This document shows, one piece after another, positions 5,733-58,785 of a stretch of 64,000 nucleotides of DNA. This DNA comes from Torpedo marmorata (lineage: Eukaryota). A model generated the notes under the pieces. The model ran no database searches. It saw only the letters and a program-made list of their open reading frames with translations, and was not told where the DNA came from. How positions within the stretch are numbered: position 1 is the first letter of the stretch; every line of letters starts with the position of its first letter. The position numbers and the translations under genes were made by a program. The DNA lies in contig OZ360236.1 of the NCBI GenBank assembly GCA_977017645.1, forward strand, positions 1,426,001 to 1,490,000, in the 5' to 3' direction.

Positions 5733-7448
5733 CCATATATTTTGGCGTATAAGTCGACCGGCAGATAAGTCGACCCCCCTTTTTCAGCCTCATTTTAATG
5801 GTTTTATTGTATATCCGGCGTATAAGTCGACCCCCAAAAATCGCGATGATTGAGCTGCTGGGTGTTGACCGGAGGTGATTGTTATCATGGAGGCTCAATT
5901 GAAACGACGAAAGTATGAGGCAAGTTTTAAATTAAAAGTTATAGAAATGGCCAAGAAAACCAACAACTGTGCTGCTGCAAGAAAATTTGATATATATGAG
6001 AAGTTGGTAAGAGATTGGAGGAAGAAAGAAGATACTTTAATTAAAATACCAAAAAGGCAATGTTCGATGAGAAGAGGAATCACTCGTTGGCCAGAGTTGG
6101 AAAATCATGTCGCAGCATGGGTACGTGAACAGAGGCAAGATTGCTACATTGTCACCCGAAATAAAATAAGAACATTTGCACTGAAGTGGGCAAAGTCGCA
6201 CCCAGAACTCAGTAAAGATTTTGAAGCTACAGTCGGCTGGTGCAACCGTTGCATGAACAGGAAAAATCTGGTTTTACGACAAAAAACTAAAATTGCTCAG
6301 AAACTACCAAAAGATCTTGATCATAAAGTTGTACGTTTTCACCAGTTTATTTTACGTAACTGGCAGAAACACAAGTTTGCATTGGCAAATATTGGAAACA
6401 TGGACGAAACCCCCATGAATTTTGACATGATAGGCAATAGAATAGTGGAATGGAAAGGTGTGAAAACTGTGCAAACGAGGAGTACAGGACATGAAAGGAC
6501 CAGGTTTACTGTGGTGTTATCGTGCATGGCTGACGGGACAAAGTTAAGACCCATGGTAATCTTCAAGCGCAAACTTAAACCTAAAATAAATTTCCCAGCA
6601 GGTATTTTTGTACATTTTCATGAAAAAGGATGGATGGATGAAAATGGTGTAAAACTATGGATAGACAATGTGTGGAACAGGCGGCCAGGCGGTTTACGCA
6701 AGGAACGGAGTTTGTTGGTCTGGGATATGTTTCGTAGCCACTTAACTGAGAAGACTAAAAGTAGATTAGCACAACATAATACTTACATGGCCGTTATCCC
6801 GGGTGGTTTGACATCTATATTGCAACCTCTCGATGTCTGCTTGAACAAGCCATTCAAAGACCACATGCGTGAAGAGTGGAATACATGGATGACGAGTGCA
6901 GAAAAATCATTTACAAAAGGCGGGGCAATGCGTGCTGCATCGCTTGATGTGCTGTGTGACCTCGTGCTCAACGCACGGGACAAAGTGAAAGTAGAGACTA
7001 TAATAAAATTGTTTAAAAAGTGCGGTATCTCTTGTGCAATTGATGGTACGGAAGATGATTTATTGTGGGACACTGACGACGAAGCTGAAGACGCCTCATC
7101 AGACTGGGACCCGTACGATGACTGTTTAAACAGTGAGACCCCGGATGTGCTTGCCGAGATCTTTGCCTCAGACGATGATAGCGAAAGTGATTTTGAAGGG
7201 TTCTAAATGTCTTGTTGTTTTCAATAAAAATGTCAATGAAAATTTGTTGCAGACGGGTTTTTTTTTTGGTTTTTCAAGGGTCGACTTATACGCCGAATCG
7301 GGTTTTCAAGGGTCGACTTATACGCCGAATCGGCGTGGACTGGTTTTTGAGCTGATTTTAAGGTCTCAAAAGTATATCCGGCGTATAAGTCGACCCCTGT
7401 TTTTTGAGAGATTTTTGAGGGTTTCAAGACTCGACTTATACGCCAGTA
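5733..7448 (+). mobile_element. pogo-superfamily (Passer/POGK-like, DD35D) DNA transposon
   Basis: Begins after TA (5731-5732) with ccatatattttggcgtataagtcgac; right end tcgacttatacgccagta is a truncated inverted copy; repeated ggcgtataagtcgacc subterminal motifs; host L1 sequence is contiguous across it. Confidence 0.9.
5887..7206 (+). CDS. pogo-family transposase, 439 aa from the ATG at 5887
   Basis: N-terminal Brinker-like HTH (RRKYEASFKLKVIE...VRDWRK), CENP-B/Tc5-type HTH, catalytic motifs NMDETP, LVWDMFRSH, LQPLDV with 35 residues between the 2nd and 3rd Asp, acidic tail; no internal stops. Confidence 0.9.
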   Translation: MEAQLKRRKYEASFKLKVIEMAKKTNNCAAARKFDIYEKLVRDWRKKEDTLIKIPKRQCSMRRGITRWPELENHVAAWVREQRQDCYIVTRNKIRTFALKWAKSHPELSKDFEATVGWCNRCMNRKNLVLRQKTKIAQKLPKDLDHKVVRFHQFILRNWQKHKFALANIGNMDETPMNFDMIGNRIVEWKGVKTVQTRSTGHERTRFTVVLSCMADGTKLRPMVIFKRKLKPKINFPAGIFVHFHEKGWMDENGVKLWIDNVWNRRPGGLRKERSLLVWDMFRSHLTEKTKSRLAQHNTYMAVIPGGLTSILQPLDVCLNKPFKDHMREEWNTWMTSAEKSFTKGGAMRAASLDVLCDLVLNARDKVKVETIIKLFKKCGISCAIDGTEDDLLWDTDDEAEDASSDWDPYDDCLNSETPDVLAEIFASDDDSESDFEGF

Positions 7449-30335: not shown

Positions 30336-30512
30336 GAAACAGAGGAGATCTTGGCAGACGTGCTGAAGGTGGAGGTTTTCCGGCAGACCGTGGCCCAGCA
30401 AGTTCTGGTGGGCAGTTACTGTGCATTCAGTAACCAGGGAGGGTTGGTTCACCCGAAGACCTCCATTGAAGACCAGGACGAGCTCTCCTCACTGCTGCAG
30501 GTTCCGTTGGTG
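30336..30512 (+). CDS. eif6: eIF6 coding exon (177 bp)
   Basis: aaccag|gaa aca gag...ttg gtg|gtaagc; [59 protein letters not shown]. Confidence 0.97.
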
Positions 30513-30571
30513 GTAAGCCCTTTGATTCTTCCCTGTGGATGACTACCCATTGACTATCGCGTGCTTACCCC

Positions 30572-40374: not shown

Positions 40375-40622
40375 TCAAGGAGTTTCCAGCCTGTTTCCTG
40401 CACAGTTGCTCCCAGGCACCAGGTCTCTGTTGTTTAAACTGTGATTGTTGACTTCCGCTGATAAAGGCAGCTCTGAAGCAGATAATATCTCACTGGCCAC
40501 TTCCGAGTGTCTCTGTACGAACAGTGTGATCCCTGACTTGTAGGCGGCTGGGATGATCAAGTGCACGGAGCCTGAACCTTCAGTGGGTGTGACCTCTCGA
40601 GCAATCATCCGAGCCACCTGCC
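40375..40622 (-). CDS. Uncharacterised papain-fold (C39-like) protein, last coding exon
   Basis: ctacag|gg cag gtg...; QVARMIAREVTPTEGSGSVHLIIPAAYKSGITLFVQRHSEVASEILSASELPL...RLETP-stop; phase 1 matches the upstream donor. Confidence 0.75.
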
Positions 40623-40689
40623 CTGTAGGAGTAGGCACAAGGCACATCACAGCTCTGCACTGGCTCTCGTTCCGCTGACCAGGTCCGCC

Positions 40690-41346
40690 CACAGGGCTCA
40701 CCCCGATCCACCCCCAGGGCTTGCCCCTCCCCCCAGATCCACCCCCAGGGCTCGCCCCTCCCCACTGATCCACCCCCAGGGCTCATCCCTCCCTCTTTAT
40801 CCACCCCCAGGGCTCGCCCCTCCCCCCTGATCCACCCCCAGGGCACGTCCCTCCCCCCTTATCCACCCCCAGGGCTCGCCCCTCCCCCCTGATCCACCCC
40901 CAGGGCACGTCCCTCCCCCCTTATCCACCCCCAGGGCTCGCCCCTCCCCCCTGATCCACCCCCAGGGCTCGCCCCCCCCTCGCCCCTGATTCACCCCCAG
41001 GGCTCATCCCTCCCCCCGATCCACCCCCAGGATTCCCCCCTCACCCCGATCCACCCCCAGGGCTCGCCCCCTCCCCCCTGATCCACCCCCAGGGCTCGCT
41101 CCTGATCCACCCCCAGGGCTCCCCGCCTCACCCCTGATCCACCCCCAGGGCTCGCACCTCCCCCTCTTATCTACCCCCAGGGCTCCCCCCTCCCCCCCTT
41201 ATCCACCCCCAGGGCTCCCCCCTCCCCCCCTTATCCACCCCCAGGGCTCCCCCCTCCCCCCCTTATCCACCCCCAGGGCTCGCCCCTCTCCCCTGATCCA
41301 CCCCCAGCCCCTCCACCCTGATCCACCCACAGGGCTCGTCCCTGAT
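40690..41346. repeat. C-rich minisatellite, ~30-bp unit, ~20 copies
   Basis: gatccacccccagggctcgcccctccccc variants in tandem. Confidence 0.92.
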
Positions 41347-41519
41347 CCAGGTAAAATGAGACAGATAAAATTAATGTTAAAGTCTGCAGATACTGGGATC
41401 ACGTGCAATGCAGACGAAGGGCCCAGGCCCGAAACGTTGGTTACCATTTACTTCCTCTGAATGCTGATATGGTGGGGAGAGCCAACCTTGGATAACTAAG
41501 GAAATGAAGGAAGGCATTA

Positions 41520-42565
41520 AACTAAAAGCTCTTGGTCTCTGTACCCCCCTCTGCAACTGGATCCTTGACTTTCTCATCAGAAGACCACAGTCAGTACAAA
41601 TTGGAAACAACGTCTCCTCCTCACTGATTATCAACACAGGCGCACTCCAAGGATGCGTGCTTAGCCCACTGCTCTACTCGTTATACACCCATGACTGTGT
41701 GGCCAGGCATAATTCCAATGCCATCTACAAGTTTGCCGATGACACCACAGTTGTTGGCAGAATCACAAACGGCAATGAGGAAGCGTACAGGAGGGAGATA
41801 GATCAGCTCATTGAATGGTGTAACGACAACAACCTTGCGCTCAACGTCAGCAAAACCAAGGAGATGATTGTGGACTTCAGGAGGAAGTCAGGGGAACACG
41901 ACCCAGCCAGTCCTCATCAAGGGCTCAGTAATGGAGAGGGTCAAGAACTTCAAATTCCTGGGTGTCAACATCTCCGAAGATCTGTCCTGGAGCCTCCACG
42001 TCGATGCAATCACAAAGAAGGCTCACCAGCGGCTATACTTTGTGAGGTGTCTGAGGAGATTCAGTATGTCACCAAAGACTCTCGTAAACTTCTACAGGTG
42101 TACCGTGGAGAGCATTCTGGCTGGTTGCATCACTGCCTGGTATGGAGGTGCCAACTCTCAGGACAAGAATAAACTCCAGAGGGTTGTTAACTCTGCCTGT
42201 GACATCACAGGCACCAGACTTCACTCCATCGAGGACATCTACACGAGGCGGTGTCTTAAAAAAGCAGCCTCTATCCTCAAAGACCCCCACCACCCAGGCC
42301 ATGCCCTCTTCACTCTGCTACCATCGGGAAAAAGGTACAGGAGCTTAAAGACGAACACTCAATGGCACAAGGACAGCTCTTCCCCGCTGCCATCAGATTC
42401 CTAAATAATCAATGAACCAAAGACACTGCCTTACTTTTCGTGCACTATTATTTATATATTTTTTTTATAGTAATGTCGTAAGATGGTTATAATATGAATG
42501 TTTGCACTATGATGCTGCCGCAAAACACCGAATTTCATGACTTGTTCATGACAATAAATTCTGAT
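41520..42565 (+). mobile_element. Rex1/Babar-type LINE, 5'-truncated, frameshifted
   Basis: [32 protein letters not shown]; a 4-bp ccag duplication near 41905 shifts the frame; near-identical to 54825-55860. Confidence 0.88.
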
Positions 42566-42569
42566 GCTC

Positions 42570-44265
42570 ATGCATGCAAAGTCATAAACTAGTGCGAAAT
42601 TGGCAGATTGGGAAAACTTTAAAAAGCAATAAAGAACCACAAAGCAAGCAATAAAGGGAAGATAGATTACAAAAGTAAACTAGCACAAAATATAAAAGTT
42701 TTTATAGTTATATAATGCAGAAAAGGGTGCCTAAAGTGAAGGTGGGTCCCTTGGAAGATGAGAAAGGAGAATAATGAGTAATGTGGAAATGGCCGCAGCT
42801 TTGAACGACTATCACGGTGGAGGACACATCTAAAATGCCAACGAGTGATGTTATGGATGCCGTGGGATGTGAGGATCTCAATACAATTGCTACTTCTAGA
42901 GAGAGTGCTGAGCAAACTAGTGGGTCTAAAGGTAGATCAGTCCCATGGTTCTGATGGAATGCATCCCAGGGTGCTGAAAGAAATGGAGGAAGTTATAGTA
43001 GAGGCTGGTGATAATTTACCCAAATTCTCTGGATTCTGGCTAGGTCCTGGCGGACTGGAAGGCATGAATGTCACGCCACTGTTTAAGAAAGGATGTAGAC
43101 AAAAGGCAGGTAATTATAGGCAAGTTAACTGGATGTCTGTAGTCTGGGAAATGCTTGAAGCTATCATTAAAGAAGAAATAGTGAGACATCCGGATAGAAA
43201 TTCTTCCATTAAGCAAACCCAGCATGGATTCAGGAAGGGAAGGTCCTGTTTGACGAATTTACTGGAGTTATATACCAAGTGCGGTAGATAGAGGGGAACA
43301 GGTGGATGTTGTGTACTGGCATTTCCAGAAGGCATTTGATAAGGTGCCACATAAAAAAACTTATCTATAAGGATGCATGGAGTAGGGAATAAAGTATTAG
43401 CATGGAGAGAGAATTGGTTAACCAATAGAAAGCAGAGAGTTGGAATAAATGGGTGTTTCTCTGGTTGGCAATTAGTGCTGCCGGAGTCAGTGCTGGGCCC
43501 ACAACTGTTCACGATATACATTAACAATTTGGAAGAGGGGACTGAGTGCAAAGCATCCAAGTTTGCTGATGACACTAAACTGAGTGGAAAAGCAAATTGT
43601 GCAGAGGATGCAGACATATGGATAGGTTACATGAGTGGGCAAGGGTCTGGCAGATGGATTGGTAAATGTGACATCATCCACTTTGGAAGAAAAATAAATC
43701 AGATTATTATTTAAATGGTGAAAGATTGCAGCATGCTGTTATGCAGAGTGCTTGTGCATGAATTGCAAAAGGTTGGTTTGCAGGTGGTAATGAAGAAGGC
43801 AAATGGAATGTTGGCCTTCATTACTAGAGGGATGGAATTTAAAGCAGGGAGATTCTGCTGCACCTGTACAAGGTACTGGTGAGGCCGCAACTGGGGTTCT
43901 GCGTGCAGTTCTGGTCTGATCTCCTTGCGCAAGTATAGATGTACTGGCTTTGGAAGTGGTGCAGAGGAGGTTCATCGGTTTGATTCCACAGATGGGGGGG
44001 TTAGCATATGAGGAGCGATTGAGTCGCCTGGGACTGTACTCACTGGAATTCAGAAGAATAAGAGGGAATCTTAAAGAAACATAAAATTATAAAATGGATA
44101 GATAAATATATTTAAGACAAGAGTTGGATAGATTTTTGCATGGCAGGGAATTCAGGATTCTGGGGAAAGGGCAGGTAAAGTGGGGCTCAGTCCAAGGCCA
44201 GATCAGCCATGATCCCATGGCAGAGCGGGCTCGACAGGCCAGATGGCTTTATGTTCCTGATACTT
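42570..44265 (+). mobile_element. CR1-clade LINE, decayed RT to 3' end
   Basis: DGMHPRVLKE, QHGFRKGRSCLTNLLE, KFADDTKLSG. Confidence 0.85.
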
Positions 44266-44608
44266 ACGTTTTCTTTCATAAAGCCACACTGATACATCCT
44301 GATCGCCTTCCAATTTACAGCTATTACCTCTTTAATAACAGATTCAAGCATTTTTCCAATGAAACTGGCCTATCGGTTCTGGATTTCTACCTTCCTCTTG
44401 CTAACATTCAGTTTTCCAGTCCTCGAGCACCTCCCCAGAATCAATGGGACATTTCTTATTACTCCTGAGGATGCAAGTTATCAGAACCCACGTGGAGATG
44501 GGCTGGAGGCATCAGAGAGCACCTCAGAACGTGGAGGCTCTGCACCTCATGGTGTTGACCTGACAGGGGCTCTGTGCTAACCAGTTCTGATGTGAAATCT
44601 CTGCTCAC

Positions 44609-44761
44609 CTGCGACATCCAGCTGTCTCCAGGCAGGGTGATCCTGGATCTCTGTCAGCACACACGGCCCAGCATCCCGCGGGAGACGAGAGAGGACATCC
44701 TCCTCCCGGACCAGTAGCAATGAGGCACTACACAGGCGCCGCTTCACAATGTGGCTGTCCA
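44609..44761 (-). CDS. Uncharacterised papain-fold protein, internal exon (153 bp)
   Basis: gtgcag|tg gac agc...gtc gca g|gtgagc; (M)DSHIVKRRLCSASLLLVREEDVLSRLPRDAGPCVLTEIQDHPAWRQLDVA; symmetric phase 1. Confidence 0.78.
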
Positions 44762-44846
44762 CTGCACAGAGGGAAAGTCTCATTACACTCGGTCAGGAAC
44801 CCTTTCCCTTCATCCCACTCCACCCCACTATCTGGAAGCTTCAAAG

Positions 44847-44985
44847 GCCCTGCTCCTGGTTCAGTCCAGTTCCTCACACAGAGTCCGAGCTCCTGGTTCA
44901 ATCTGGCTCCTCACACAAGAGTCCCTGCTCCTGGTTCAGTCCGGTTCCTCACACAGAGTCCCTGCTTCTGGTTTAGTCCAGCTCG
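44847..44985. repeat. Tandem repeat, ~38-bp unit, ~3.5 copies
   Basis: ctgctcctggttcagtccagttcctcacacagagtcc repeated. Confidence 0.8.
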
Positions 44986-45669
44986 GAGTCGAGCATCCCA
45001 TGGAGAACAGCAGCACAGGGGACATCATATTTCAGAAAGTGAGGTGTGGCTGGGAGACCGCTGCTGCTCATTCAGACGCGGTGAGTGTTTACACCTCTAT
45101 TATGGTACGGACATGAGGGACTGGAGTGTTTAGCAGTCTGGTTCAGTGTGGACCTTGGTTTCCCACTGGGATTACTTTCAGTCAAGTTTTTTTTAAGTTA
45201 CCTGGAAGCCTGGTGCCCAGTGCTATGTTGTCCGCACCACCTGAGACTTCCTGTGGTCCATATGAACTTGTGTGCAGGAGATGCACTCAGATTGATCAGC
45301 TGGTGCTGGGCTTTGGAGCTTCAGTGCCAGCTGAAGGCACCACAGCATATCAGTTACACAGTTATAGCAAGGTTTTAAGCGGTAGTTACCCCCTGCACAA
45401 CCTGAGGAATATATATTCATGACTTGGATGTGATGAAAGGTGGTCTGACAGAGCAAGGTTGCAGATTACACAAAAATTGGCAGTGTCAGAATCCAACCAA
45501 ATGCGAGGTGATGCATTTTGGGAAGAAATATCGGGTAGGACATGTACAGCAAACAGCAGCAACATCGGTATATAGTGCAGCGGAGAAGGCAAGTGGCATG
45601 CTTGCCTTCATAGGGGCGCAGAGTATCAGAGTTTAAAAGAACAAGAATTTGTAAAGTCTCCTAACTCAC

Positions 45670-45936
45670 TGAGCTCCAGAGGATTGGTCATGTAAATCCC
45701 CTCAGGGCCTACTCCGAATATCATCTGATGGTGCCAGGCATCGGGAATCTCCTCTCCCTCTGGCACTGCAACTTGCATGTTCATGGTAGCTACAGGCACA
45801 GCCCCCTTGCTGATCCAGCCAACCAGCCAAGCTGTCAGATCCACTGCCCGCTCCGGGTAGAAGCTGAAGAACCTGCCAGTTACCCTACCCTCACTGGCCA
45901 TCTCTGCTCCCTCCAGCAGCTGCTCATGGGTGGCAC
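45670..45936 (-). CDS. Uncharacterised papain-fold protein, internal exon (267 bp) with putative catalytic His and Asn
   Basis: tgccag|gt gcc acc...gag ctc a|gtgagt; ATHEQLLEGAEMASEGRVTGRFFSFYPERAVDLTAWLVGWISKGAVPVATMNMQVAVPEGEEIPDAWHHQMIFGVGPEGIYMTNPLEL. Confidence 0.82.
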
Positions 45937-46759
45937 CTGGCAAGAGAAAGCAGTGTGTGATTATTGCTGTCTGTAGCAGTCCCGGACCATCCATTCCCCT
46001 TCATCCGCAACCAAACAAACCTTACCACACCCTGCTCTGAAGCCGCAGCTCCCACTCCCGACGGGCTGGGGGCGCAGTCTTCTGTCGTCCAATTTGAAGA
46101 GCTGCAAACCGAGAAAACCTGACATACTATGCTCATTTGCAGGTACATCCTGTCCACACACACCTTAGCAAACTATGCGCTCATGCAGAGGCTACACACA
46201 CGCACACACAGGATGCATACATGTACACCATACCAACTGTGTCCCTGCACTCATCACACAGCTTGCACTTGATGCTCACACACGATGCACTATGAATGCA
46301 GAACAACTGTTTAGTCTATACAGTATGTGTGAGCCCCTGGCTTTGAGTCACACATCACTTTTCCACCCTGATCCTGGCCGGTCTTCAGTCATGCAGCTTC
46401 AGTTCCCAGATTCAATGCTGTCCTCCGGCGCTACCTGTGTGGGGTTTGCACGGTCTCTCTGTGACCCAAGTGCTCTGGTTTCCTCCCACTCCCAAAGATG
46501 TGCTGGTTGGTAGGTTAGGGATAATAGGACCAGCTGACCACTAAGTTACCCCTAATTTGTTGGTTAGCACCAGAGATGAGGGGAATGTGGGAGAGAACAG
46601 GTTACGGTGAAGTGGGGAGACAGGACCAATGGAAATGCTCTGGGAGCTGGCATGGACTGATGGACTGAATGGCCTCTTATGCCAGAAAGACATTTGAAAT
46701 ACCCAGACCAAATTAATTCAACACTTTTGGAAAATCAGCATTTCAGCATCTTGGTTTAA

Positions 46760-47995
46760 AATTTCTGATGGGAAACTATCCTCCCCCGGAGACTTTCCAC
46801 TTGTTAAAGAACTAAGAGCGTCATTAACTTCTCTCATCGTAAATGATGTGTCTAAAAATGTTTTACTTTGGGTATTTAATCGAGGTAACTTCATTTTAGA
46901 TAAAAATTCACTAATTTTAGAGTCATCTTTATCAGTTTGAGATTTATATAAATTTAAATAAAATTCCTTAAAGGAATCATTTATTTCTCGAGGTTTATGT
47001 TATTTTCTTTGAATTCTTTTTTATAGCGGTTATAGTTCTAGAAATTTGTTCTTTCTTTAGTTGCCACGCTAACACTTTGAGCTCTTTCTCCCAGTTCATA
47101 TCTTTGCTTAGTTCTTTCAATGAATTTTTCCATTTTATATGTTTGTAACGTATTATAATGCAATTTTTCTCAATTAAATTTTTTCTCTTTTCTTCTGTTC
47201 CCTTTTCTTGCAAATCTTTCTCCAAAAACTCAATCTCCCTTTCCAGATTATCCAATTCCTGAATATATTCCTTCTTAACTTTTGCTGAATAACTTATTAT
47301 TTGACCTCTTAAATAAGCCTTTAAAGCTTCCCAAATAATAAATTTATTATTAGTCGAATTAGAATTAATCTGTAAAAATTCTTGAATTTCTCTTATATAA
47401 TTACAAAAATCCATTCTTTTCAATAAGGAAGAATTAAATCTCCATCTATATATCATTTTTTTCTTTTTCTGGAATTATACATGACATTAAAAGAGGTGAA
47501 TGATCAGAAATTATTCTAGCTTTATATTGTGCTTGAGTCACCCTCTCTTCTAATTGTGATGACAATAAAAACATGTCTATTCTAGAATAAGAATCATGTC
47601 TAAAAGTATAAAAGAAATAGTCTTTTTCTTTTGGATTCAACTTCCTCCAAATATCTATTAAATTCAAATCTTTCATCAAAGTAAGAATTATTTTAGCAGT
47701 TTTAGTTCTAATAATTGATTTTGATGTTTTATCCATTATTGGATCTAAACAACAATTAAAATCTCCACCAATTAAAATATTATCATTTGCTTCTGACAAG
47801 TGCATAAAAGAGTCTTGAATAAATTGTTCATCTTCCATATTTGGCACATATATATTCATAAGTGTCCACATTTCTGAATATATTTGACAATTTATTAAGA
47901 CAAATCTTCCTGCAACATCTATAACCACAGATTGTATTTTAAAAGGTAACTTTTTATTAATTAATATAGCAACTCCTTTTGCTTTAGAATTAAAT
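46760..47995 (-). mobile_element. L1-clade ORF2 endonuclease region (inverted segment)
   Basis: FNSKAKGVAILI, LIGGDFNC, YSRIDMFL, IISDHSPL, WRFNSSLL, IWEALKAYLRG, ending at GKSPGED. Confidence 0.88.
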
Positions 47996-49900
47996 GACTG
48001 TTTTATTGAGAGAATATGGGGAAATATCTGGTTATAAGATTACTTCTGATAAAAGTGAAATTATGCCATTGACACAAGGAGACTATAATAAATGTAAAGA
48101 AATTACACGATTTAAATGGTCAAATAATGGAATTAAATATTTGGGAATTAAAATAGATACAAAATTAGGTAATTTATATAAATTAAATTACTTACCATTA
48201 TTTACTAATATTAAAAAGGATTTAGAGAGTTTGAAAGACTTACCTATAACTTTAATAGGAAGGGTAAATTGTATCAAAATGAATGTTTTTCCAAGAATTC
48301 AATACCTTTTTCAATCAATTCCTTATGAAATTCCTCAAAAATTCTTTAAGGATTTAAATTTAATTATTAGGAAATTTTTGTGGAATGGAAAGTTGGCTAG
48401 AGTAGGTATGGAGAAATTAACTTGGAATTATGAAATGGGAGGTTTACACATTCCCAATTTTCAAAATTATTATAAGGCAGCTCAATTAAAATTCATTAAT
48501 GAAATGTTTGATTTAGAAAAATCTTCTGCTTGGATTAGAATAGAATTAAATAATATAGGAGGATTCGAAAGAAGAAGTTTTTTTTAAATGGAATTCTAAA
48601 TTATTATTAAGGGGAGGTAAAAATTCCCCTATTTTAAAACATTTGTTAGAAATATGGAATAAAGTGGATCGGGAGATAGGAGGGAAAGGGTTAATTTCTT
48701 GTAAAATGCCTTTATATAAAAATAAACTTATCCCATTTACTATTGATAATCAATTGTTTAAAATTTGGTTTCAAAAAGGGATAAAAAAATAAATGATCGT
48801 TTTGAAGCTGGTAAATTTATTACTTTTCAAAGAATGAAAGAGAAGTTTAATGTATTAAATAATACACTTTTTGCTTATCAAATAAGAACATTTTTAGTTG
48901 AAAAGTTAGGTCATAGTTTAATTTTACCAAAACAAAGTGAATTGGAATTATTAGTTACTAATGGGGGTATAAATAAATTTATTTCTCAAATGTATAGATT
49001 GTTACAGAAAAAATGCCTAAACCAGGAATTACATAAATCAAGATTAAAATGGGAATCAGATTTGAATGTAACAATAGATGAAGAACATTGGAAAGAAATA
49101 TGTAAACAAAGTATGATGAAAATTATTAATGTTAGATATAGGTTAGTACAATAACTTTTTGCATCAATTATATTGAACACCTAAGAAACTAAAGAAATTT
49201 AATTCGAGACTATCAGATTTATGTTTTAGATGTAATAGAGAGGAAGGCTCTTTTGTACATTCTACGTGGCTTTGTCCAAGGATACATGCTTTTTGGCTGA
49301 AAGTTTAAAAGTTTTTAGACAAAGTATTAAGAATTACACTCCCAATGAATCCTATGATATTTTTGTTTGGAGATATTAAAAGAATTAGTATTAAAATTAG
49401 ATTAAATATGTATCAAATAGAATTTTTACGAATTGCTTTAGCTGTTTCAAAGAAATGCTTTGCTATTACATGGAAATCTGATGTCGATTTAGGGTTAGAA
49501 AGATGGCATGCAGAACTTCATTCATGTATGCCACTTGAAAAAATTACTTATAATTTACATAATAAATATCATTTCTTTTTGAAAATATGGAGCCCATATA
49601 TAAAGACTGTGGGTTTAAGGATTTGAGGATTTCTCGATATCAGATCTGACTGGCGAACCTATGTTCCACAATAAAATTAATGTATAGTTGTTCTTTTTTT
49701 TTTAGATTGACATTCTCCAATTACTATCCTTTTTTTTTCTTTCTTTCTATATTATTAGAGTAGTAGGGGTGGGTGGGTTAGGGAAGGGAGGGAGGGGACG
49801 GTGAAAATATATCACATGTATTCTGATAATTTTGTATTTTATAAACATGTATTATCGTGTGATTTAAAATTTTAAATAAAATTTTTTTTTTTGTTTTAAA
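47996..49900 (+). mobile_element. L1-clade ORF2 late RT, zinc finger and 3' UTR
   Basis: EISGYKI, IKYLGI, LIGRVNCIKMNVFPRIQYLFQ, GGLHIPNF, zf-RVT region, 3' UTR with aataaa. Confidence 0.88.
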
Positions 49901-51206
49901 AAGGTTTTGAAACTGGAACACACCTCAGCCAGGTCATCACTTCACCTCAGTTCAAATAGAGCCTCGGCTGCTCTGCCTCTGCCGCCTGCTTGTTTCTGTA
50001 GCTTGCTGCTTTTCTACTTTCCACCACCAGCTGGCTCTCTCCCTCCCGATTCTCCTCTCAGCTTCCTGTGCTCCTGTCACTCTCCCCTTCTGTGCAAATT
50101 CAACGTTCACTTCCTGCTGAGCATCTCCACTTTCTCTGTTTTTATAACAACAGGTCAATGACAATTTAAATCAGAACTGGGAAAACTTGATTCCCACCTT
50201 AGGAACAGGAGCCCCTCTAGCATTTTACACAGAAATAGGAAGCCATTCGGTCTCTTGAGCTTATCAGTTTGGAACAGGAAGATCTTCTCGTCTAGAATCT
50301 GTTCAGCCACTTAGTTGGATGACTGCTGTTCTGCACTCCAATCCCATTTACTTCCTTTGCCTCCATATTCCTTGATACCCCAAAACAACATTCCATCACG
50401 GGAGACAAAAGTCTGCAGATGCTGAGTTCCTCTAGCAGTTTTCAGATTCCATCAGTTCTGTTGAAGGTGGAAAATAATTCTTTCTCTCTCCATAGATGCT
50501 GCCTGACCTGCTGAGTCTGCACAGTATTTCTATTTTGATTTCCAGCATCTACAGCAGTTTGGCGCTTCAAACGTTCTCAGTGTTTCTGACAAAAATTATA
50601 TTACAGATGCTGGAAACCTGCAATAAAAATGGAAAATATTGTGCAGACGGCACAATATTCTCCCTCCATATGTTTCTCTCTCCACAGAGGTTGCCTGGCC
50701 TGCTCGGTATTTCCAGTGTTTTATAACAATGTCAGGTCAATAACCTTTTCATCAGAATTGGGAAAAAGTGGGAATTAAACAAATTGCATTTTCAGAGAAG
50801 GGGGAGAGTGGTAGGGGGTCAGGAATCCAATAGTCAGGGAGAGCAGAAACAAAGCTGAAAGTGTAAATTAGAAATGTCCTGCGCAAAATAAACAGGAAGT
50901 GGAAGCAAAGGCAGGCAGCAGATGGGGTCAGGGTGCATAAAATAAGGCCAAATGTACAGAATACTGTTCTCAAAGGTTTGCAGGAACGGTGGGGTTAGTG
51001 GACATGATTGAGGAGGCAGTTAATAAAGGGTACAAAATTCTCAACTTAGTCAACAAAGACGTAGAATACAAATACAGAGAAATCATACTGATTCTTCATA
51101 AAACATTACGTTCAATTCTAGTCACCGCACAATAGGGTCCAGAAAAGACTACTGAATTTTTGAAGCAATATGTAGATAGCCCAACCAGTGAGGGGCCCAT
51201 TCTTAA

Positions 51207-51962
51207 GTTCAAATTCAAATCTATTGTCAGAGTACATACATGACAACACATACAACCCTGAGATTATTTTTCCTGCAGGCGAGGCAGAATTTCTACTTAT
51301 CGGTAAACTATACTCAAGAAAAAGATACAAATACAAAAGAGAAATGTAAACAAACTATGCAAATGCAGAAAAAAATATTTAGTAATAAATAATTACTAAA
51401 GTAAGAGTCCTTAAACGAGTCTCTGATTGAGTCTGATGGCGGAGGGGTAGCAGCTGTTCCTGAACCTGGTGGTGCGAGTCTTGTGGCACCTATACCTCTT
51501 TCCTGATGGCAGCAGCGAGAACAGAGCATGTGCTTGGTGGTGTGGATCCTTGATGATTGCTGCTGCTCTCTGACGGCAGCTTTCCATGTAGATTTTCTTG
51601 ATGGTGGGGAGGATTTTGCCTGTGATGTCATTGGCTGCATCCACTACCTTTTGCAGGGCTTTCCGCTCAGAGGTATTGGTGTCCCTAGACCGTGATGCAG
51701 CCAGTCAGCATACTTTCCACTAGACATCTGTAGAAGTTTGCCAAGGTTTCCAATGTCATACCAAACTTCCACAAACTCCTGAGGAAGTAGAGGCACTGAT
51801 GTGCTTTCTTCACAATGACATTAGTGTGTTGGTTCCAGGAACAGTCCTCTGAGAGAGTGTGACTCTCAGGAATTTATATTTGCTCACCCTCTCCACCTCT
51901 GATCCTCAAATGATCATACACCTCTGGTTTTCCCCTCCTAAAGTCTACAATCAGCTCCTTGG
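51207..51962 (-). mobile_element. Rex1/Babar-type LINE 3' fragment
   Basis: [33 protein letters not shown]; (aaattc)n tail. Confidence 0.82.
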
Positions 51963-52406
51963 CTTTGACATTTGGTTGTTCGGCCTTGTATTGGGAAATA
52001 AGCCTGACCAGGTGATTAGAATTTCAGTGGGAGAGTTTTTTGGGAATAGTGATCACAATTCCTTGTTTCAAGATAGTTATGAATAAGGACAAGCCTGGGC
52101 TTTGTGGGAAAATACTAAACTGGGGGAGGACAAATTATGACATAAAACACAGGATGTGCGGGAGTTAATTAGGAGTAGCTGTTATCAGTTTAGTTACCCG
52201 TAATTAGAAATTCTGCCTGGCCCACAGGGAAATGAATCTCAGGGTTGTCTGTGATGTCATGTTTGTACTCCGACAATAAATTTGAACTTAGACTTTTAAC
52301 TTGTCTGGTAAGTCCACAATGGCACATGGGAGTTGTTTAAGGACAGCTAATTGGAGTTCAGGACAGGAATGTCCAGTAAGGAGGAAGGACAGGGGTTGCA
52401 AGCTAA

Positions 52407-52622
52407 GGGTGGCACAGCAGCGCAACACCATTACAACGGCAGCAACCTGGGTTCGAGCCCGTCGCTGTCTGTAAAGCGCTTGTATGTTCTCCCCATGACT
52501 GCATGGATTTCCTCCCGTGTACTAAAGATGTACGAGTCAGCAAGTTAATTGATCAGATGGGTGTAATTAGGTGGCACGGGCTCATGGGCCGGAAGGGCCT
52601 GTTACAATACTGTATCTCTAAG
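52407..52622 (+). mobile_element. V-SINE copy, diverged
   Basis: gggtggcacagcagcgc...gggttcgagcccg...gggccggaagggcctg. Confidence 0.65.
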
Positions 52623-52634
52623 TAAGTTTATCAA

Positions 52635-53271
52635 TTGTTCCCCTGTGGCCGCAGGAGGTGCAACACTTGCGCCCACACCTCCTCCCTCACCACGGTCCGG
52701 GGCCCCAAACAGGTCTTTCAAGTGAAGCAACACTTCACTTGTGTCTCCGCAGGACTCATTTACTGCATCCGGTGCTCCCTTTGTGACGTTCTCTACAGCG
52801 GAGAGACCAGTCGCAGATTGGGAGATCGCTTCGCTGAGCACCTCCTCTCCGTCTGCAACCACAGCGACCTCCCAGTAGCCAACCATTTCAATTCTAAGTC
52901 ACACTCCCAGACTCACACGTCTGTCCATGGCCTTTTGTACTATCCTACCCTGACCACCTGCAGATTGGAGGAACAACACCTTATCTTCCGTCTGGGCATT
53001 CTCCAGCCAGATGGCATTAACATTGATTTCTCTGCTTTCTGCTAAACTTGCTTGCCTTTTCTTTCCCCCCCCTTTCCAGTTCTCCCTGCCCTTCCCCCTT
53101 ACCTACCCAGCCATCCCTCCTCCCCCTCATTGCTGCTGTCCCCTCCCTCCCCTCATCCACCTATCATCTCCTGCCTTTGCCACCCCCCCCCAAAACCCTT
53201 TTGTTCAGATGCCTGCTGGCATTCTCTCATACCTTGATGAAGGGCTCAGGCCCGAAACGTTGGTTATGTAT
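52635..53271 (+). mobile_element. Penelope-like element: GIY-YIG endonuclease and pLTR-like end (continues at 54170-54205 and ~55860-55885)
   Basis: CGRRRCNTC...FTCVSAGLIYCIRCSLCDVLYSGETSRRLGDRFAEH...VANHFN...RLEEQHLIFRLGILQPDGIN. Confidence 0.85.
53233..53263 (+). ncRNA. Minimal hammerhead ribozyme-like motif in the Penelope end (representative copy)
   Basis: ttgatga-a-gggc-tcag-gccc-gaaac-gtt: CUGAnGA-like box, 4-bp stem II, GAAA box, palindromic ACGT replacing helix III. Confidence 0.6.
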
Positions 53272-54169
53272 TGTTACAAATTCAAACCAGCAACGACAGA
53301 AGACGCAATGCAAAAGGGGTAAAATTGAAATTATTATTTATTAAACACAAGTAAACATATAATTTCACAACAATTAACCCCACTATAAACGTCTATAAAC
53401 TCTATTCTTATCTAAAAGGTGCATGTGTGTGTGTGTAAAGCCCAGACCATTACAGTCTGTGCCCAACCCTTATGTAAAAATGGAAAAACTTTCCCCAAAA
53501 ACCCCAGGTCAGTCATAAAAACAAGTCAGTCAAAAAAAAGATAAACACAGTCGACAAAATCCACTCTCTAAGTTCAGGCTTCAACTTTTTCTCTGTGTCT
53601 GGTAGAAGTACTTCTGAATGAACGTTGGAGAGAGACAATGACTGTTTATGCTTACAAATACTTGTTTTCTTCTCTGATGACGTCCCCTTCTTGTAGGTTC
53701 ATAAGGATTGCAAGTTCCAGATCAGTATACCACTGATTTAGGCGTATGCTTGAATCTCACAGCTAGTCTCGCTGATCTCACGCCTGTTCTCCACAGAAGT
53801 TGTTTTTTCTCAGAATTTCTCTGAGACAGGAGGCCATGTGCTATTTTGCCACATTTTCTCTGACTGCACAAACCTGGATTTGGCTGTGTTCTGTAGCCTT
53901 GCAACTCACAACTGTGTCTGCTTTGCAGAGATCTGCCCCTGCTTTTTGCAGAAGTGAAACAAATGTATCTTGTCCAGTCTGAGTCTGTCTCTCTCTCTGG
54001 TCTCTCTCTGTCTGGGTACACCAAGAGTGCAACAATGTATCTTGTCTGGGTACACCAAGTAGCTGGGGAAGTTAACTCTTTCAGTACCTGGCCCAAGTGT
54101 ATACTCCAAAAGACTTCATCCTTCCTGCTCTCCGTCCGCAGTCCAAATGGTCAGTCATGGTCCATAACA
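53272..54169 (-). mobile_element. Solo LTR, 898 bp
   Basis: TGTTA...TAACA termini; 4-bp TSD gtat at 53268-53271 and 54170-54173; host Penelope sequence is contiguous across it; AATAAA on the minus strand near 53337-53342. Confidence 0.8.
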
Positions 54170-54205
54170 GTATTTCTACCTTTGCTACATAAAGGACACT
54201 GTTTG

Positions 54206-55862
54206 CCTACAAAGCGAGGGCGAACACTATAGACGGCTGTGATGCTTCACTACCCGATGAGCTGAAGAACAAAACAGTGCCTACTAGAATCCCTGAAAAG
54301 GCTGAGGACCCTGTGATATCTGTCTCTGAGGGCGATGTCAGAACATCATTCAAGAGGGTGAACCCTCGCAAGGCGTCAGGCCCTGACGGCGTACCTGGCA
54401 GGGTACTGAAAATCTGCGCCAACCAACGAGCCGGAGTGTTCACGGACATTTTCAACCTCTCATTGCGGCAGTCAGAGGTTCCCACCTGCTTGAAAAGGGC
54501 ATCAATCATCCCGGTACCCAAGAAGAGTAGTGTGGGCTGCCTCAACGACTACCGCCCAGTAGCACTAACTTCTACTGTGATGAAATCCTTTGAGAGGCTG
54601 GACATGGCCAGAATTAACACATACCTAAGCAAAGATCTGGACCCACTGCAATTCGCCTATCGCCACAATCGCTCCACAGCAGATGCAATATCGCTGGCTC
54701 TCCACTCAGCTCTGGATCACCTCGAAAACAGCAATTCATACATACGGCTGCTCTTCATCGACTACAGCTCGGCCTTCAATACCATTATTCCCTCAGTCCT
54801 GGTCAAGAAGCTACAAACTATAGGCCTCTGTACCCGCCTCTGCAACTGGATCCTTGACTTTCTCATCGGAAGACCACAGTCAGTACGAATTGGAAACAAC
54901 GTCTCCTCCTCACTGATTATCAACACAGGCGCACCCCAAGGAAGAGTGCTTAGTCCACTGCTCTACTCGTTATACACCCATGACTGTGTGGCCAGGCACA
55001 ATTCCAATGCCATCTACAAGTTTGCCGATGACACCACAGTTGTCGGCGGAATCACAAACGGCAATGAGGAAGCGTACAGGAGGGAGATAGATCAGCTCGT
55101 TGAATGGTGTAACGACAACAACCTTGAGCTCAACGTCAGCAAAACCAAGGAGATGATTGTGGACTTCAGGAGGAAGTCAGGGGAACACGACCCAGTCCTC
55201 ATCGAGGGCTCAGTCATGGAGAGGGTCAAGAACTTCAAATTCCTGGGTGTCAACATCTCAGAGGATCTGTCCTGGAGCCTCCACGTCGATGCAATCACAA
55301 AGAAGGCTCGCCAGCGGCTATACTTTGTGAGGTGTCTGAGGAGATTCGGTATGTCACCAAAGACTCTCGTAAACTTCTACAGGTGTACCGTGGAGAGCAT
55401 TCTGGCTGGTTGCATCACTGCCTGGTATGGAGGCGCAAACTCTCAGGACAAGAATAAACTCCAGAGGGTTGTTAACTCTGCCTGTGACATTACAGGCACC
55501 AAACTTCACTCCATCGAGGACATCGACATGAGACTGTGTCTTAAAAAAGCAGCCTCTATCCTCAAAGACCCCCACCACCCAGGCCATGCCCTCTTCACTC
55601 TGCTACCATCGGGAAAAAGGTACAGGAGCTTAAAGACGAACACTCAACGGCACCAGGACAGCTTCTTCCCCGCTGCCATCAGATTCCTAAATAATCAATG
55701 AACCAAAGACACTGTCTTACTTTTCGTGCACTATTATTTATATATATATTTTTATAGTAATGTCGTATGATGGTTATAATATGAATGTTAATTGCACTAC
55801 GATGCTGCCGCAAAACACCGAATTTCATGACTTGTTCATGACAATAAATTCTGATTCTGATT
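54206..55862 (+). mobile_element. Rex1/Babar-type LINE, 5'-truncated, with an uninterrupted RT frame
   Basis: Open ORF 54277..55701 followed by a 3' UTR and (ttctga)n tail. Confidence 0.9.
54277..55701 (+). CDS. Non-LTR reverse transcriptase (N-terminally truncated ORF2)
   Basis: [52 protein letters not shown] motifs; no endonuclease domain, so not autonomous. Confidence 0.75.
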
Positions 55863-56744
55863 CTCCAGCATTTTGTGTTTTTTATCAAGGGAACCTTGGA
55901 TGACATGAGAGGTAGTGAATCTAGTCAAAAAGAAAAAGGAAGCATGTGTGAAGTTTAGTAAGCTAAAAATCCAACAGGGCCCTGAAGGAAATCAAGCATT
56001 GCAGGGATGTTAGAATTTCAGTGTACATGTACATTGTACAAAGTATATGACAATAAACTCATTATCATTATCAAGCAGGGCATCAGAAAGACTCATGAAA
56101 TGTCATTGGCAAGCAGGATTAAAGAGAATTCAGAGGCATTTTAAAAAGCGGTAACGAAAGCAAGGAGTTTGTCCGTTCTCCCCATGTCTGCGTGGGTTTT
56201 CCCCGGGTACTCCGGTTTTCTCCCACCCTCCAACAACATACGGGGCTGTAGGTTAATTTGGACGGCATGGGTTTAAATGGCTAGAATCGGCTTCTACTGT
56301 GGTGTAAATAAAGAATAGGACCAAAGACAAAAAGGACATTTATGCTTGGAGTCAGCGGAAGTGGGTGAGGTCTTAAATGAGTTATTTGCATTGGTATTCA
56401 CGAAGATCACGGAGGATAGTGATAGGGAGCATATTACGGAGAATGTTAATGTATTCGGGCATTTTGAGAGCAACAAAGAGAAGATGCTGGGTCTTTTGAA
56501 TAGCATTAAGATGGGCCTAATGGGATATATCCCAGGATATTAAGAGGCAAGCGAGGAGATTGCTGAAGTTCGGCGCAGAATTTTGTGTTGTCACCAGCAA
56601 CCGGCGACATCCAGGAGGAGCGGAGAGTAGCCAATATTCCTTTATTCAAGTGAAATAAGGAAAATTATAGACCAGTGAGACTCACATCAACAGTAGGAAA
56701 ACTTGGGACAAGTCATGTTGCCTTCCAAATTTGCATTGGGGGAA

Positions 56745-58512
56745 TGCCGGCGGCATGGTGGTGGTGGTGGGGGCGGCTGGTGAGGGGGGGCGGTGGCATG
56801 GTGAGGGGTGGGAGGGGGTGGTGGCATGGTGTGGGGTTGGGGGGGGAGCGGCATGGTGAGGGGTGGGGGGGTGGCGGTGGCATGGTGAGGGGTGGGGGGG
56901 TGGCAGTGGCATGGTGAGGGGTGGGGGTCGGTTGGTGAGGGGTGGGGGGGTGGTGGCATGGTGAGGGGTGGGGGGGGCGGTGGCATGGTGAGGGGTGGGG
57001 GGCGGTGGCATGGTGTGGGGTTGGGGGGGCGGTGGCATGGTGAGGGGTGGGGGGGCGGTGGCATGGTGAGGGGTGTGGGGGGCGGTGGCATGGTGAGGGG
57101 TGGGGGGGGCGGTGGCATGGTGAGGGGTGGTGGCATGGTGAGGGGTGGGGGGGCGGTGGCATGGTGTGGGGTTGGGGGGGCGGTGGCATGATGAGGGGTG
57201 GGGGGTGGTGGCATGGTGAGGGGTGGGGGGTGGTGGCATGGTGTGTGGTGGGGGGGCGGTGGCATGGTGAGGGGTGGGGGGGCGGTGGCATGATGAGGGG
57301 TGGGGGGGTGGTGGCATGGTGAGGGGTGGGGGGGTGGTGGCATGGTGTGTGGTGGGGGGGCGGTGGCATGGTGAGGGGCGGGGGGCGGTGGCATGGTGAG
57401 GGGTGGGGGGGCGGTGGCATGGTGAGGGGTGGGGGGGCGGTGGCATGGTGAGGGGTGGGGGGGCGGTGACATGGTGAGGGGTGGGGGGCGGTGGCATGGT
57501 GAGGGGTGGGGGGGCGGTGGCATGGTGAGGGGTGGGGGGGCGGTGGCATGGTGTGGGGTGGGGGGGCGGTGGCATGGTGAGGGGTGGGGGGGCGGTGGCA
57601 TGGTGAGGGGTGGGGGGGCGGTGGCATGGTGAGGGGTGGGGGGGCGGTGGCATGGTGAGGGGTGGGGGGAGGTGGCATGGTGAGGGGTGGGGGGCGGTGG
57701 CATGGTGAGGGGTGGGGGGAGGTGGCATGGTGAGGGGTGGGGGGGCGGTGGCATGGTGAGGGGTGGGGGGGCGGTGGCATGGTGAGGGGTGGGGGGGCGG
57801 TGGCATGGTGTGTGGTTGGGGGGGCGGTGGCATGGTGAGGGGTGGGGGGGCGGTGGCATGGTGAGGGGTGGGGGGGCGGTGGCATGGTGAGGGGTGGGGG
57901 GCGGTGGCATGGTGAGGGGTGGGGGGGCGGTGGCATGGTGAGGGGTGGGGGGGCGGTGGCATGGTGAGGGGTGGGGGGGCGGTGGCATGGTGTGGGGTGG
58001 GGGGCGGTGGCATGGTGAGGGGTGGGGGGCGGTGGCATGGTGAGGGGTGGGGGCGGGCGGTGGCATGGTGAGGGGTGGGGAGGTGGCATGGTGAGGGGTG
58101 GGGGCGGTGGCATGGTGAGGGGTGGGGGGAGGTGGCATGGTGAGGGGTGGGGGGCGGTGGCATGGTGAGGGGTGGGGGGAGGTGGCATGGTGAGGGGTGG
58201 GGGCGGTGGCATGGTGAGGGGTGGGGGGAGGTGGCATGGTGAGGGGTGGGGAGGTGGCATGTGAGGGGTGGGGCGGTGGCATGGTGAGGGGTGGGGGGAG
58301 GTGGCATGGTGAGGGGTGGGGGGCGGTGGCATGGTGAGGGGTGGGGGGGCGGTGGCATGGTGAGGGGTGGGGGGGCGGTGGCATGGTGTGTGGTTGGGGG
58401 GCGGTGGCATGGTGAGGGGTGGGGGGCGGTGGCATGGTGAGGGGTGGGGGCGGTGGCATGGTGAGGGGTGGGGGGGCGGTGGCATGGTGAGGGGTGGGGG
58501 GCCGGCATGGTG
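56745..58512. repeat. G-rich minisatellite, ~26-27-bp unit, roughly 65 copies
   Basis: ggcggtggcatggtgaggggtgggggg in tandem with variable G-run length. Confidence 0.95.
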
Positions 58513-58533
58513 GGAGGCCGGGCGAGTCGGTAC

Positions 58534-58685
58534 CTGCCACGCTGCGGGACAACAGGTACTGGGGCAGAGGGGCGTCCTGCTCCCTCAGCCGGGTCAGCAC
58601 GCACTGCTCCACCGTATCGGCCAGGCCCAGAGCCCGCAGAACGGTCGCCACGGCGGTGGCGCCGCAGGAGCTCGGGCCCTCCTGC
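58534..58685 (-). CDS. Uncharacterised papain-fold protein, exon with putative catalytic Cys (5' end lost in gap)
   Basis: QEGPSSCGATAVATVLRALGLADTVEQCVLTRLREQDAPLPQYLLSRSVA then g|gtaccg donor (phase 1); GC/CpG-rich codon-like sequence. Confidence 0.8.
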
Positions 58686-58785
58686 NNNNNNNNNNNNNNN
58701 NNNNNNNNNNNNNNNNNNNNNNNNNNNNNNNNNNNNNNNNNNNNNNNNNNNNNNNNNNNNNNNNNNNNNNNNNNNNNNNNNNNNN
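58686..58785. other. Assembly gap (100 N)
   Basis: Run of exactly 100 N, the usual unknown-size placeholder. Confidence 0.99.

Follow-up and report, generated by a model that had tools for sequence, protein, structure and literature searches.

We analysed a 64,000-nucleotide window of the Torpedo marmorata genome (contig OZ360236.1, positions 1,426,001 to 1,490,000), whose minus strand carries a spliced gene without a name between positions 58685 and 40375. An initial annotation of this DNA had proposed four exons and a stop-free frame of at least 272 residues, and splicing of the window reproduced both. The exons (58534–58685, 45670–45936, 44609–44761, and 40375–40622; 152, 267, 153, and 248 nt, respectively) are separated by three introns that all begin with GT and end with AG, all junctions are in phase 1, and the resulting 272 codons are open up to a TGA that ends at 40375. 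Neither the 5′ end nor the start codon is visible, since exon 1 adjoins an assembly gap of 100 N (58686–58785), which covers the 5′ part of this coding exon including a conserved M-x-W motif; the Narcine orthologue P0002 has 16 extra residues before the first visible codon of Torpedo exon 1. A C-rich tandem repeat of approximately 1.9 kb (56682–58533) lies directly behind the donor of exon 1 and yields long spurious open frames of Pro, His, and Thr. The gap is probably due to this repeat in combination with a stretch upstream that is also C-rich.

The visible part of exon 1 (82% identical to Narcine) encodes the predicted oxyanion-hole Gln (58682–58684), the helix bearing the predicted catalytic Cys (58664–58666), and invariant Arg and Tyr motifs. 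Exon 2 encodes the central β-sheet with the predicted catalytic His, the first His of a WHHQ motif (45731–45733), and the predicted third triad residue, an Asn that lies 16 residues further on and is followed by Pro (45683–45685). Exon 3 corresponds to a mostly helical insertion specific to the family, and exon 4 to an IPAAY motif, the last core strand, an unconserved tail, and the stop codon. In tblastn searches the exons aligned one after another to the corresponding segments of proteins from rays, sharks, and the coelacanth, with E values of 1e-11 to 1e-55, which argues that the exon chain did not arise by chance. Of the junctions, the second was seen directly: a contig of the public run X1, presumably RNA, omits exactly 44762–45669 (intron 2, 908 nt) with CT..AC ends and joins 44761 to 45670, although the same contig continues 127 bases into intron 3 (40623–44608). 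X1 cover of exon 4 spans 40453–40615. X1 showed neither junction 1 nor junction 3. It also gave no cover of exon 1, and a search of runs listed no carrier recorded as RNA, neither of which is evidence on expression. All three junctions coincide with isoform breakpoints of relatives. The insertions of lungfish and coelacanth isoforms fall at junctions 1 and 2, the lungfish one at the site of the repeat-rich, 12.6-kb intron 1 (45937–58533), and the Narcine isoform P0001 diverges at junction 3 and ends in a tail for which Torpedo has coding sequence as well. This alternative last exon (30489–30532, minus strand) has a CAG acceptor in phase 1 and adds 13 codons and a stop, with 87% identity over 15 residues to the P0001 tail. 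It would replace exon 4, and since the last core strand would then be lost, the product is likely to be inactive or unstable. The gene is present once in the Torpedo genome. The four exons thus constitute a real, single-copy spliced gene of a eukaryotic family that has no name.

The C39/phytochelatin-synthase-like papain fold that had been proposed from short motifs was borne out by structure prediction. An AlphaFold2 model was built for the sawfish orthologue, which shares 78% of its residues with the window product. It had a predicted local distance difference test (pLDDT) score of 86.9 and a predicted template modelling (pTM) score of 0.85, and its alignment against 48,161 representative structures gave Z scores of 14–16 at 8–14% identity to the best ones. 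The highest scores were those of the pseudomurein endoisopeptidase PeiR (8z4h; Z 16.1, root-mean-square deviation (rmsd) 2.2, 143 aligned residues) and P210 CD lyase (22oc; Z 16.1, rmsd 3.0, 166 residues), followed by Nostoc phytochelatin synthase (PCS; Z 15.0–15.5, rmsd 3.0, 161–166 residues) and the peptidase domains of PCAT1 and ComA (Z 14.3–14.8, rmsd 2.2–2.5, 130–134 residues). These proteins and the LahT-type peptidase domains (also within Z 14.3–14.8) ranked above staphopain, papain-type enzymes, and UfSP. Foldseek likewise placed Nostoc PCS and C39-like enzymes at the head of its PDB rows, with E values no better than 5e-3. The core of a helix and an antiparallel sheet is present in the model, with rmsd values of 2.2–3.0 over 130–166 residues to PeiR, PCS, PCAT1, and ComA, but only these 130–166 of approximately 250 residues align to known structures, and a conserved insertion at about 176–240 makes up much of the remainder.

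Comparison with the individual members of this fold group showed both likeness and distance. The C39 domains (ComA and PCAT1, PF03412; C39_2, PF13529) share with the family the fold, the Gln-x5-Cys motif, a His at the start of a strand, and the spacing of 16 to the third residue. In contrast, identity to them is 11–13%, and the family lies below the Pfam cut-off, has Asn in place of Asp, lacks the ABC (ATP-binding cassette) transporter, and is eukaryotic. It is also about twice the length of a C39 domain, with an N-terminal helix and a 65-residue insertion. PeiR and P210 CD lyase, the top structural matches, are 9–13% identical; PeiR cuts the archaeal cell wall, whereas the animal family has no shared signal peptide. 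At the level of sequence, none of 24 orthologues reached any Pfam cut-off. The best score against PF13529 was 17.4 bits (another was 14.9 bits) compared to a cut-off of 24, PF03412 gave no match, and an ABC exporter domain of the PF03412 type was found in none of the 44 + 7 proteins scanned. PF05023, the PCS model, scored 12 bits with exon 1 and at best 16.1 bits, in a malawimonad member (E 0.0066), with a cut-off of 24.9 bits; a PF05023 search of the Torpedo genome gave no match, but the control was silent as well. In searches of PDB sequences the sawfish protein found nothing and the family profile one match at E 0.8, and NCBIfam gave no match for five animal members. By language-model features the nearest named clusters were ACTMAP-like_C (0.96), DUF6885 (0.94), and Phytochelatin (0.94). 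We conclude that the gene belongs to a new, unnamed, and ancient family within the known papain-like fold group (C39/C70/C83). Its gene models already stand in RefSeq as uncharacterised proteins; what is new here is the assignment of fold and triad, the range, a likely loss in tetrapods, and a link to GNAT domains.

The residues of the predicted active site are nearly invariant. Among the sequences covering each column, the Cys is conserved in 233 of 233, the His and the Asn each in 239 of 239, and the Gln six residues before the Cys in 232 of 233. The Cys, the His, and an Asn or Asp are also intact in 83 of the 94 further 50%-cluster representatives (of 127) that cover all three columns. Some divergent members (P0423, P0426, P0430, P0431, P0447, P0452, P0455, P0464, and others) have lost Cys, His, or Asn and are likely to be pseudo-enzyme paralogues. 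In the model, Cys38 opens the helix 38–49, His153 opens the strand 153–160, and Asn169 stands just past the strand 165–167, so that the three residues would occupy the canonical papain-like positions, with the Cys at the N-terminus of the core helix and the His and third residue on adjacent strands (PMC10318531). The initial annotation had named a Cys-His-Asn site without choosing between the two His residues of WHHQ, and the choice can now be narrowed. The first is the likely catalytic one because it lies 16 residues before Asn-Pro, the same spacing as between His96 and Asp112 of ComA (PMC5481443), because it has a Gly at +6 as in Torpedo GUCD1, and because two clusters keep the Cys, the first His, and the Asn while the second His is replaced with Phe. 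Taken together, conservation and model make it very probable that the family protein is an active Cys-His-Asn enzyme.

The family is widespread among animals and extends beyond them. Exon 2 as the query found 210 proteins, and the 120 listed include rays, sharks, a chimaera, a lamprey, the coelacanth, lungfish, and ray-finned fishes. In identity, the window product reaches 89% with the Narcine protein, 65% with those of coelacanth and lungfish, 56% with that of zebrafish (LOC100332351, the one copy in that species), and 43–48% with five invertebrate proteins. A profile search found 196 long forms, among the 120 listed of which are insects, crustaceans, molluscs, annelids, a brachiopod, ribbon worms, and hemichordates; in the long invertebrate forms the domain is C-terminal, behind a median of 528 low-complexity residues. 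A 40-row tree broadly tracks species relationships and places the window product as sister to Narcine (100/97). An unindexed search with a profile retrieved 966 representatives with E values no higher than 0.001, of which the best 150 were listed; that profile included the low-complexity N-terminus, and the count may be inflated. Four of 20 representatives looked up were named, namely those of amphioxus, starfish, the coral Acropora, and the malawimonad Gefionella. Orthologues thus range from fishes, amphioxus, and starfish through protostomes and coral to a malawimonad, with 40–60% identity from coral to lungfish, and no functional name among them suits the domain. In the literature searched, none of six orthologue identifiers occurs in any paper, and no paper on the family turned up. 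Scans of prokaryote genomes and viral contigs, which reach close motif matches only, gave 53 and 24 pattern matches, none of them confirmed, and a fold search of viral proteins gave two uncharacterised or unnamed proteins at E<0.001, which was uninformative.

In the long invertebrate members (P0123–P0239), the N-terminal region contains two short motifs, YxY[KR]G (87 of 117) and D[FY]LEMDF (93 of 117), a median of 44 residues apart, which could possibly be docking or phospho-regulated motifs. None of the 13 proteins checked from spiralians and hemichordates shows the motifs in this form, and three of the 13 contain a related SPxTDF motif. An atlas search with the arthropod N-terminal region gave no usable match. 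Some records carry names or domains that do not fit. Fusions to GART in three teleost gene models (P0023, P0121, and P0122, from an eel, a characin, and a catfish) were read as merged neighbours because GART lies on another contig in Torpedo; these models imply that the gene stands just upstream of gart in those fishes. A few records are labelled 'pyroglutamyl-peptidase 1', 'GyrB_0', 'calcium channel', or 'Par6/3-dehydrosphinganine reductase'; these names were read as neighbour merges or automatic mislabels, the Acropora one being the label checked by Pfam.

The initial annotation recognised no human member, and this held among the matches listed. With the lungfish protein as the query, no tetrapod occurred among the 120 listed of 365 matches, and no tetrapod genome was searched directly; the next matches in that list were coelacanth, bichir, sturgeon, sharks, and teleosts. 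Likewise, among 254 short members, those at least 55% identical to lungfish or coelacanth were only lungfish, coelacanth, and lamprey records. A record named 'Mustela putorius furo' was rejected as a tetrapod member, being identical to a tilapia protein and placed in the cichlid cluster. These observations suggest that the family was lost in tetrapods. The coelacanth genome paper reportedly lists genes lost in tetrapods, and that list may include this one. No fly or nematode name was among the matches listed, the genomes of neither having been searched directly. The function is not simply an aquatic one, since insects keep the gene.

We consider it about an even chance that the family protein is a cysteine peptidase of the papain fold that resides in the cytosol and has one or a few specific proteins as its substrates, which it would most likely cleave close to the N-terminus. 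A cytosolic site is indicated by the absence of a shared signal peptide (only 8 of 323 N-termini have a mean hydropathy of at least 2.0) and by the short and acidic N-termini of the fish proteins. Narrow specificity is indicated by the single-copy retention and by many invariant non-catalytic residues, among them Arg68 and Arg81. By analogy with papain chemistry, the Cys that opens the core helix would attack the peptide carbonyl, the first His of WHHQ would act as the general base and acid, the Asn 16 residues after it would orient this His, and the Gln six residues before the Cys would stabilise the oxyanion. The thioester formed at the Cys would then be hydrolysed, and the conserved insertion of about 65 residues and the invariant Arg, Tyr, and Trp residues would set the specificity. 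The peptidase might trim an N-terminus ahead of acetylation, a coupling that we put forward tentatively.

A precedent is ACTMAP (C19orf54, PF21646), which cuts actin before NAA80 acetylates it (PMC11735805 and PMC13557074). ACTMAP is also a papain-like cytosolic cysteine protease of animals (PMC13367750) and is the nearest named cluster by features. It differs from the present family in that it is a separate Torpedo gene without a sequence match and is found in humans, whereas the unnamed family was not seen in tetrapods among the matches listed. The link to acetylation comes from fusions to one family of GNAT acetyltransferases. Scanning of 44 proteins found an N-terminal GNAT in five, from three 50%-clusters of environmental eukaryotes. 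A fourth environmental cluster has a related GNAT at the C-terminus (34% identical to the N-terminal kind, E 7e-16) and sits in a separate, starred clade with three possibly partial proteins that lack a GNAT. Fusions thus account for 4 of the 21 rows outside the named animals (3 N-terminal and 1 C-terminal). The best PDB sequence matches of one fused GNAT were NAA10 (E 5e-6) and RimI (E 3e-5), both weak. By analogy with ACTMAP and NAA80, the fusions suggest a link to a pathway that cuts and then acetylates. A GNAT family with a YDWHGG motif (P0477, P0540, and P0443; locus L135) was observed in GC-rich environmental eukaryote records, below all NCBIfam cut-offs. The related DUF3335 family (PF11814) is also often fused to GNATs, like the four environmental clusters, and belongs with GUCD1 (Guanylate_cyc_2, PF09778) to the same papain-like cluster (PMC10318531). 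GUCD1 resembles the family further in a His with Gly at +6 and an Asn-Pro third residue. However, it is a separate Torpedo gene, and neither Pfam model matches the family. In the Torpedo GUCD1 gene, the exon of the catalytic Cys matches twice, 5.4 kb apart (G000:C11:237758018–237763539), which may be a tandem exon or an assembly duplication.

Several observations weigh against a peptidase coupled to acetylation. The NCBIfam scores of the fused GNATs are all far below the cut-off, leaving their class unsettled, and the C-terminal GNAT matches aminoglycoside acetyltransferases best. No animal protein in a set of 548 carries a GNAT, and a whole-protein search of the Torpedo genome found no such GNAT, its strict first look being able to miss weak matches. 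At metagenome loci a GNAT was present at only 2 of 23, one of which is the query itself. Records of algal type fuse readily, as is shown by other one-off fusions (TTL-like, LRR, PhyH, M42/M28, phosphatase, and an HDAC piece). As for the peptidase itself, about one in nine of the representatives (11 of 94) lacks a triad residue, the geometry of the active site was judged from positions in the secondary structure, and the top four structural matches differ by no more than approximately 1 Z. The same fold also serves transpeptidases, wall hydrolases, and acyltransferases.

It is conceivable, but rather improbable, that the protein is enzymatically active in the metabolism of small molecules or short peptides, as a PCS-like transpeptidase, a glutathione-conjugate carboxypeptidase, or an acyltransferase or amidase, with the fused GNAT acting on the same metabolite. 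PCS (C83, PF05023; Nostoc Alr0975 and AtPCS1) resembles the family in its fold, in the helix motif Gln-x5-Cys-Gly, and in being a stand-alone, decorated domain, and the Gln six residues before the Cys is common to the family and AtPCS1 (Gln50 and Cys56; PMC3855540). Nostoc PCS is moreover the top Foldseek match and aligns over more residues than the bare C39 domains do, and the malawimonad member scores weakly on PF05023. The invariant Arg68 and Arg81 could bind carboxylates, one fused GNAT is closest to small-molecule acetyltransferases, and a fusion to the PhyH dioxygenase exists. On the other hand, AtPCS1 activity needs Arg152, Lys185, and Tyr186 (PMC3855540), which are conserved in 75 bacterial PCS but lack a counterpart in the family when judged by sequence position: in the window protein, the stretch from the preceding strand to the His contains no Arg, and there is no Lys or Tyr at +5 and +6 from the Asn. 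The GHFSP and DVARFKY motifs are also missing, the third residue is Asn and not Asp, and a profile–profile alignment with the 75 bacterial PCS spans only the Cys helix, at a probability of 2%. The earlier judgement that this is not a PCS therefore stands, and because the residues that PCS needs are missing, activity with glutathione and Cd appears to be the less likely outcome. If the protein did act on small molecules, the tetrapod loss would mean that a step of metabolism or detoxification was given up.

It seems unlikely that the protein, instead of trimming a terminus, is an isopeptidase that takes a tag off other proteins, whether this tag is a ubiquitin-like modifier or consists of amino acids attached by a ligase of the GNAT or TTL type. 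UfSP2, UfSP1, ZUFSP, and ATG4A were found at Z 8.8–10.5, but UfSP and ATG4 structures lie 4–7 Z below the C39/PCS group, and the Asp-Pro-His box of ATG4 and UfSP (C54 and C78) is absent, the His being on the canonical strand and Asn-Pro on the next. The GNATs fused to DUF3335 are possible peptide ligases (PMC10318531), and one member of the present family is fused to a TTL-like domain (E 1.4e-4), although this fusion is a single record. The long, acidic, low-complexity N-termini of arthropods with their short conserved motifs resemble docking regions.

It is very unlikely that the family protein is a catalytically dead scaffold or that the Torpedo copy is a decaying gene. The members lacking a triad residue, the unseen 5′ end, and a loop after the Cys helix that is about three residues shorter in the window product than in sawfish would fit this. 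However, all four catalytic residues are present in Torpedo and near-invariant elsewhere, the frame is open across four exons with the high identity to Narcine, and two of the three exon differences listed between the window and X1 are silent. A diverged orthologue of ACTMAP, GUCD1, BIVM, or an animal PCS is hardly credible, even with the feature clusters named above and the shared His...Asn-Pro type of Torpedo GUCD1, since ACTMAP (PF21646, contig C74) and GUCD1 (PF09778, contig C11) are separate genes on other Torpedo contigs, as their exclusion in the initial annotation had implied, no orthologue reaches a Pfam cut-off, and none of these names occurs on the matches listed, BIVM included, of which no sequence was compared.

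Two further open frames were observed on the plus strand of the window. One of 502 codons (54193–55701) lies within intron 1 and resembles the reverse transcriptase of a long interspersed nuclear element, with decayed copies elsewhere, for example at 41468–42404. The other (5869–7206) is an intact-looking, 445-codon transposase of the pogo/Tc5 type (DDE_1, BrkDBD, and HTH_Tnp_Tc5).

The peptidase that we favour would be of interest because an enzyme that is kept as a single copy from coral to lungfish and has protist relatives must serve a specific purpose, and yet it has neither a name nor a Pfam family. Surveys of papain-like enzymes seeded from Pfam, the PDB, and human proteins would miss it. 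The 2023 survey was seeded from Pfam, MEROPS, COG/KOG, the PDB, and human proteins, and no such family is in the cluster I rows of part 1 of its Table S1 (PMC10318531). The single copy in zebrafish makes the function directly testable. ACTMAP was a similar orphan until 2022, when it was shown to control actin maturation. A doubtful extension is that the family is an ancient eukaryotic protein-maturation protease with its own GNAT, which would cleave a conserved substrate at its N-terminus and acetylate it anew, as a third such pathway beside those of actin and Rubisco, and which would have persisted in fishes, invertebrates, and protists but been lost at the origin of tetrapods. Confirmation of the tetrapod loss would make this one more enzyme dropped at the move to land.

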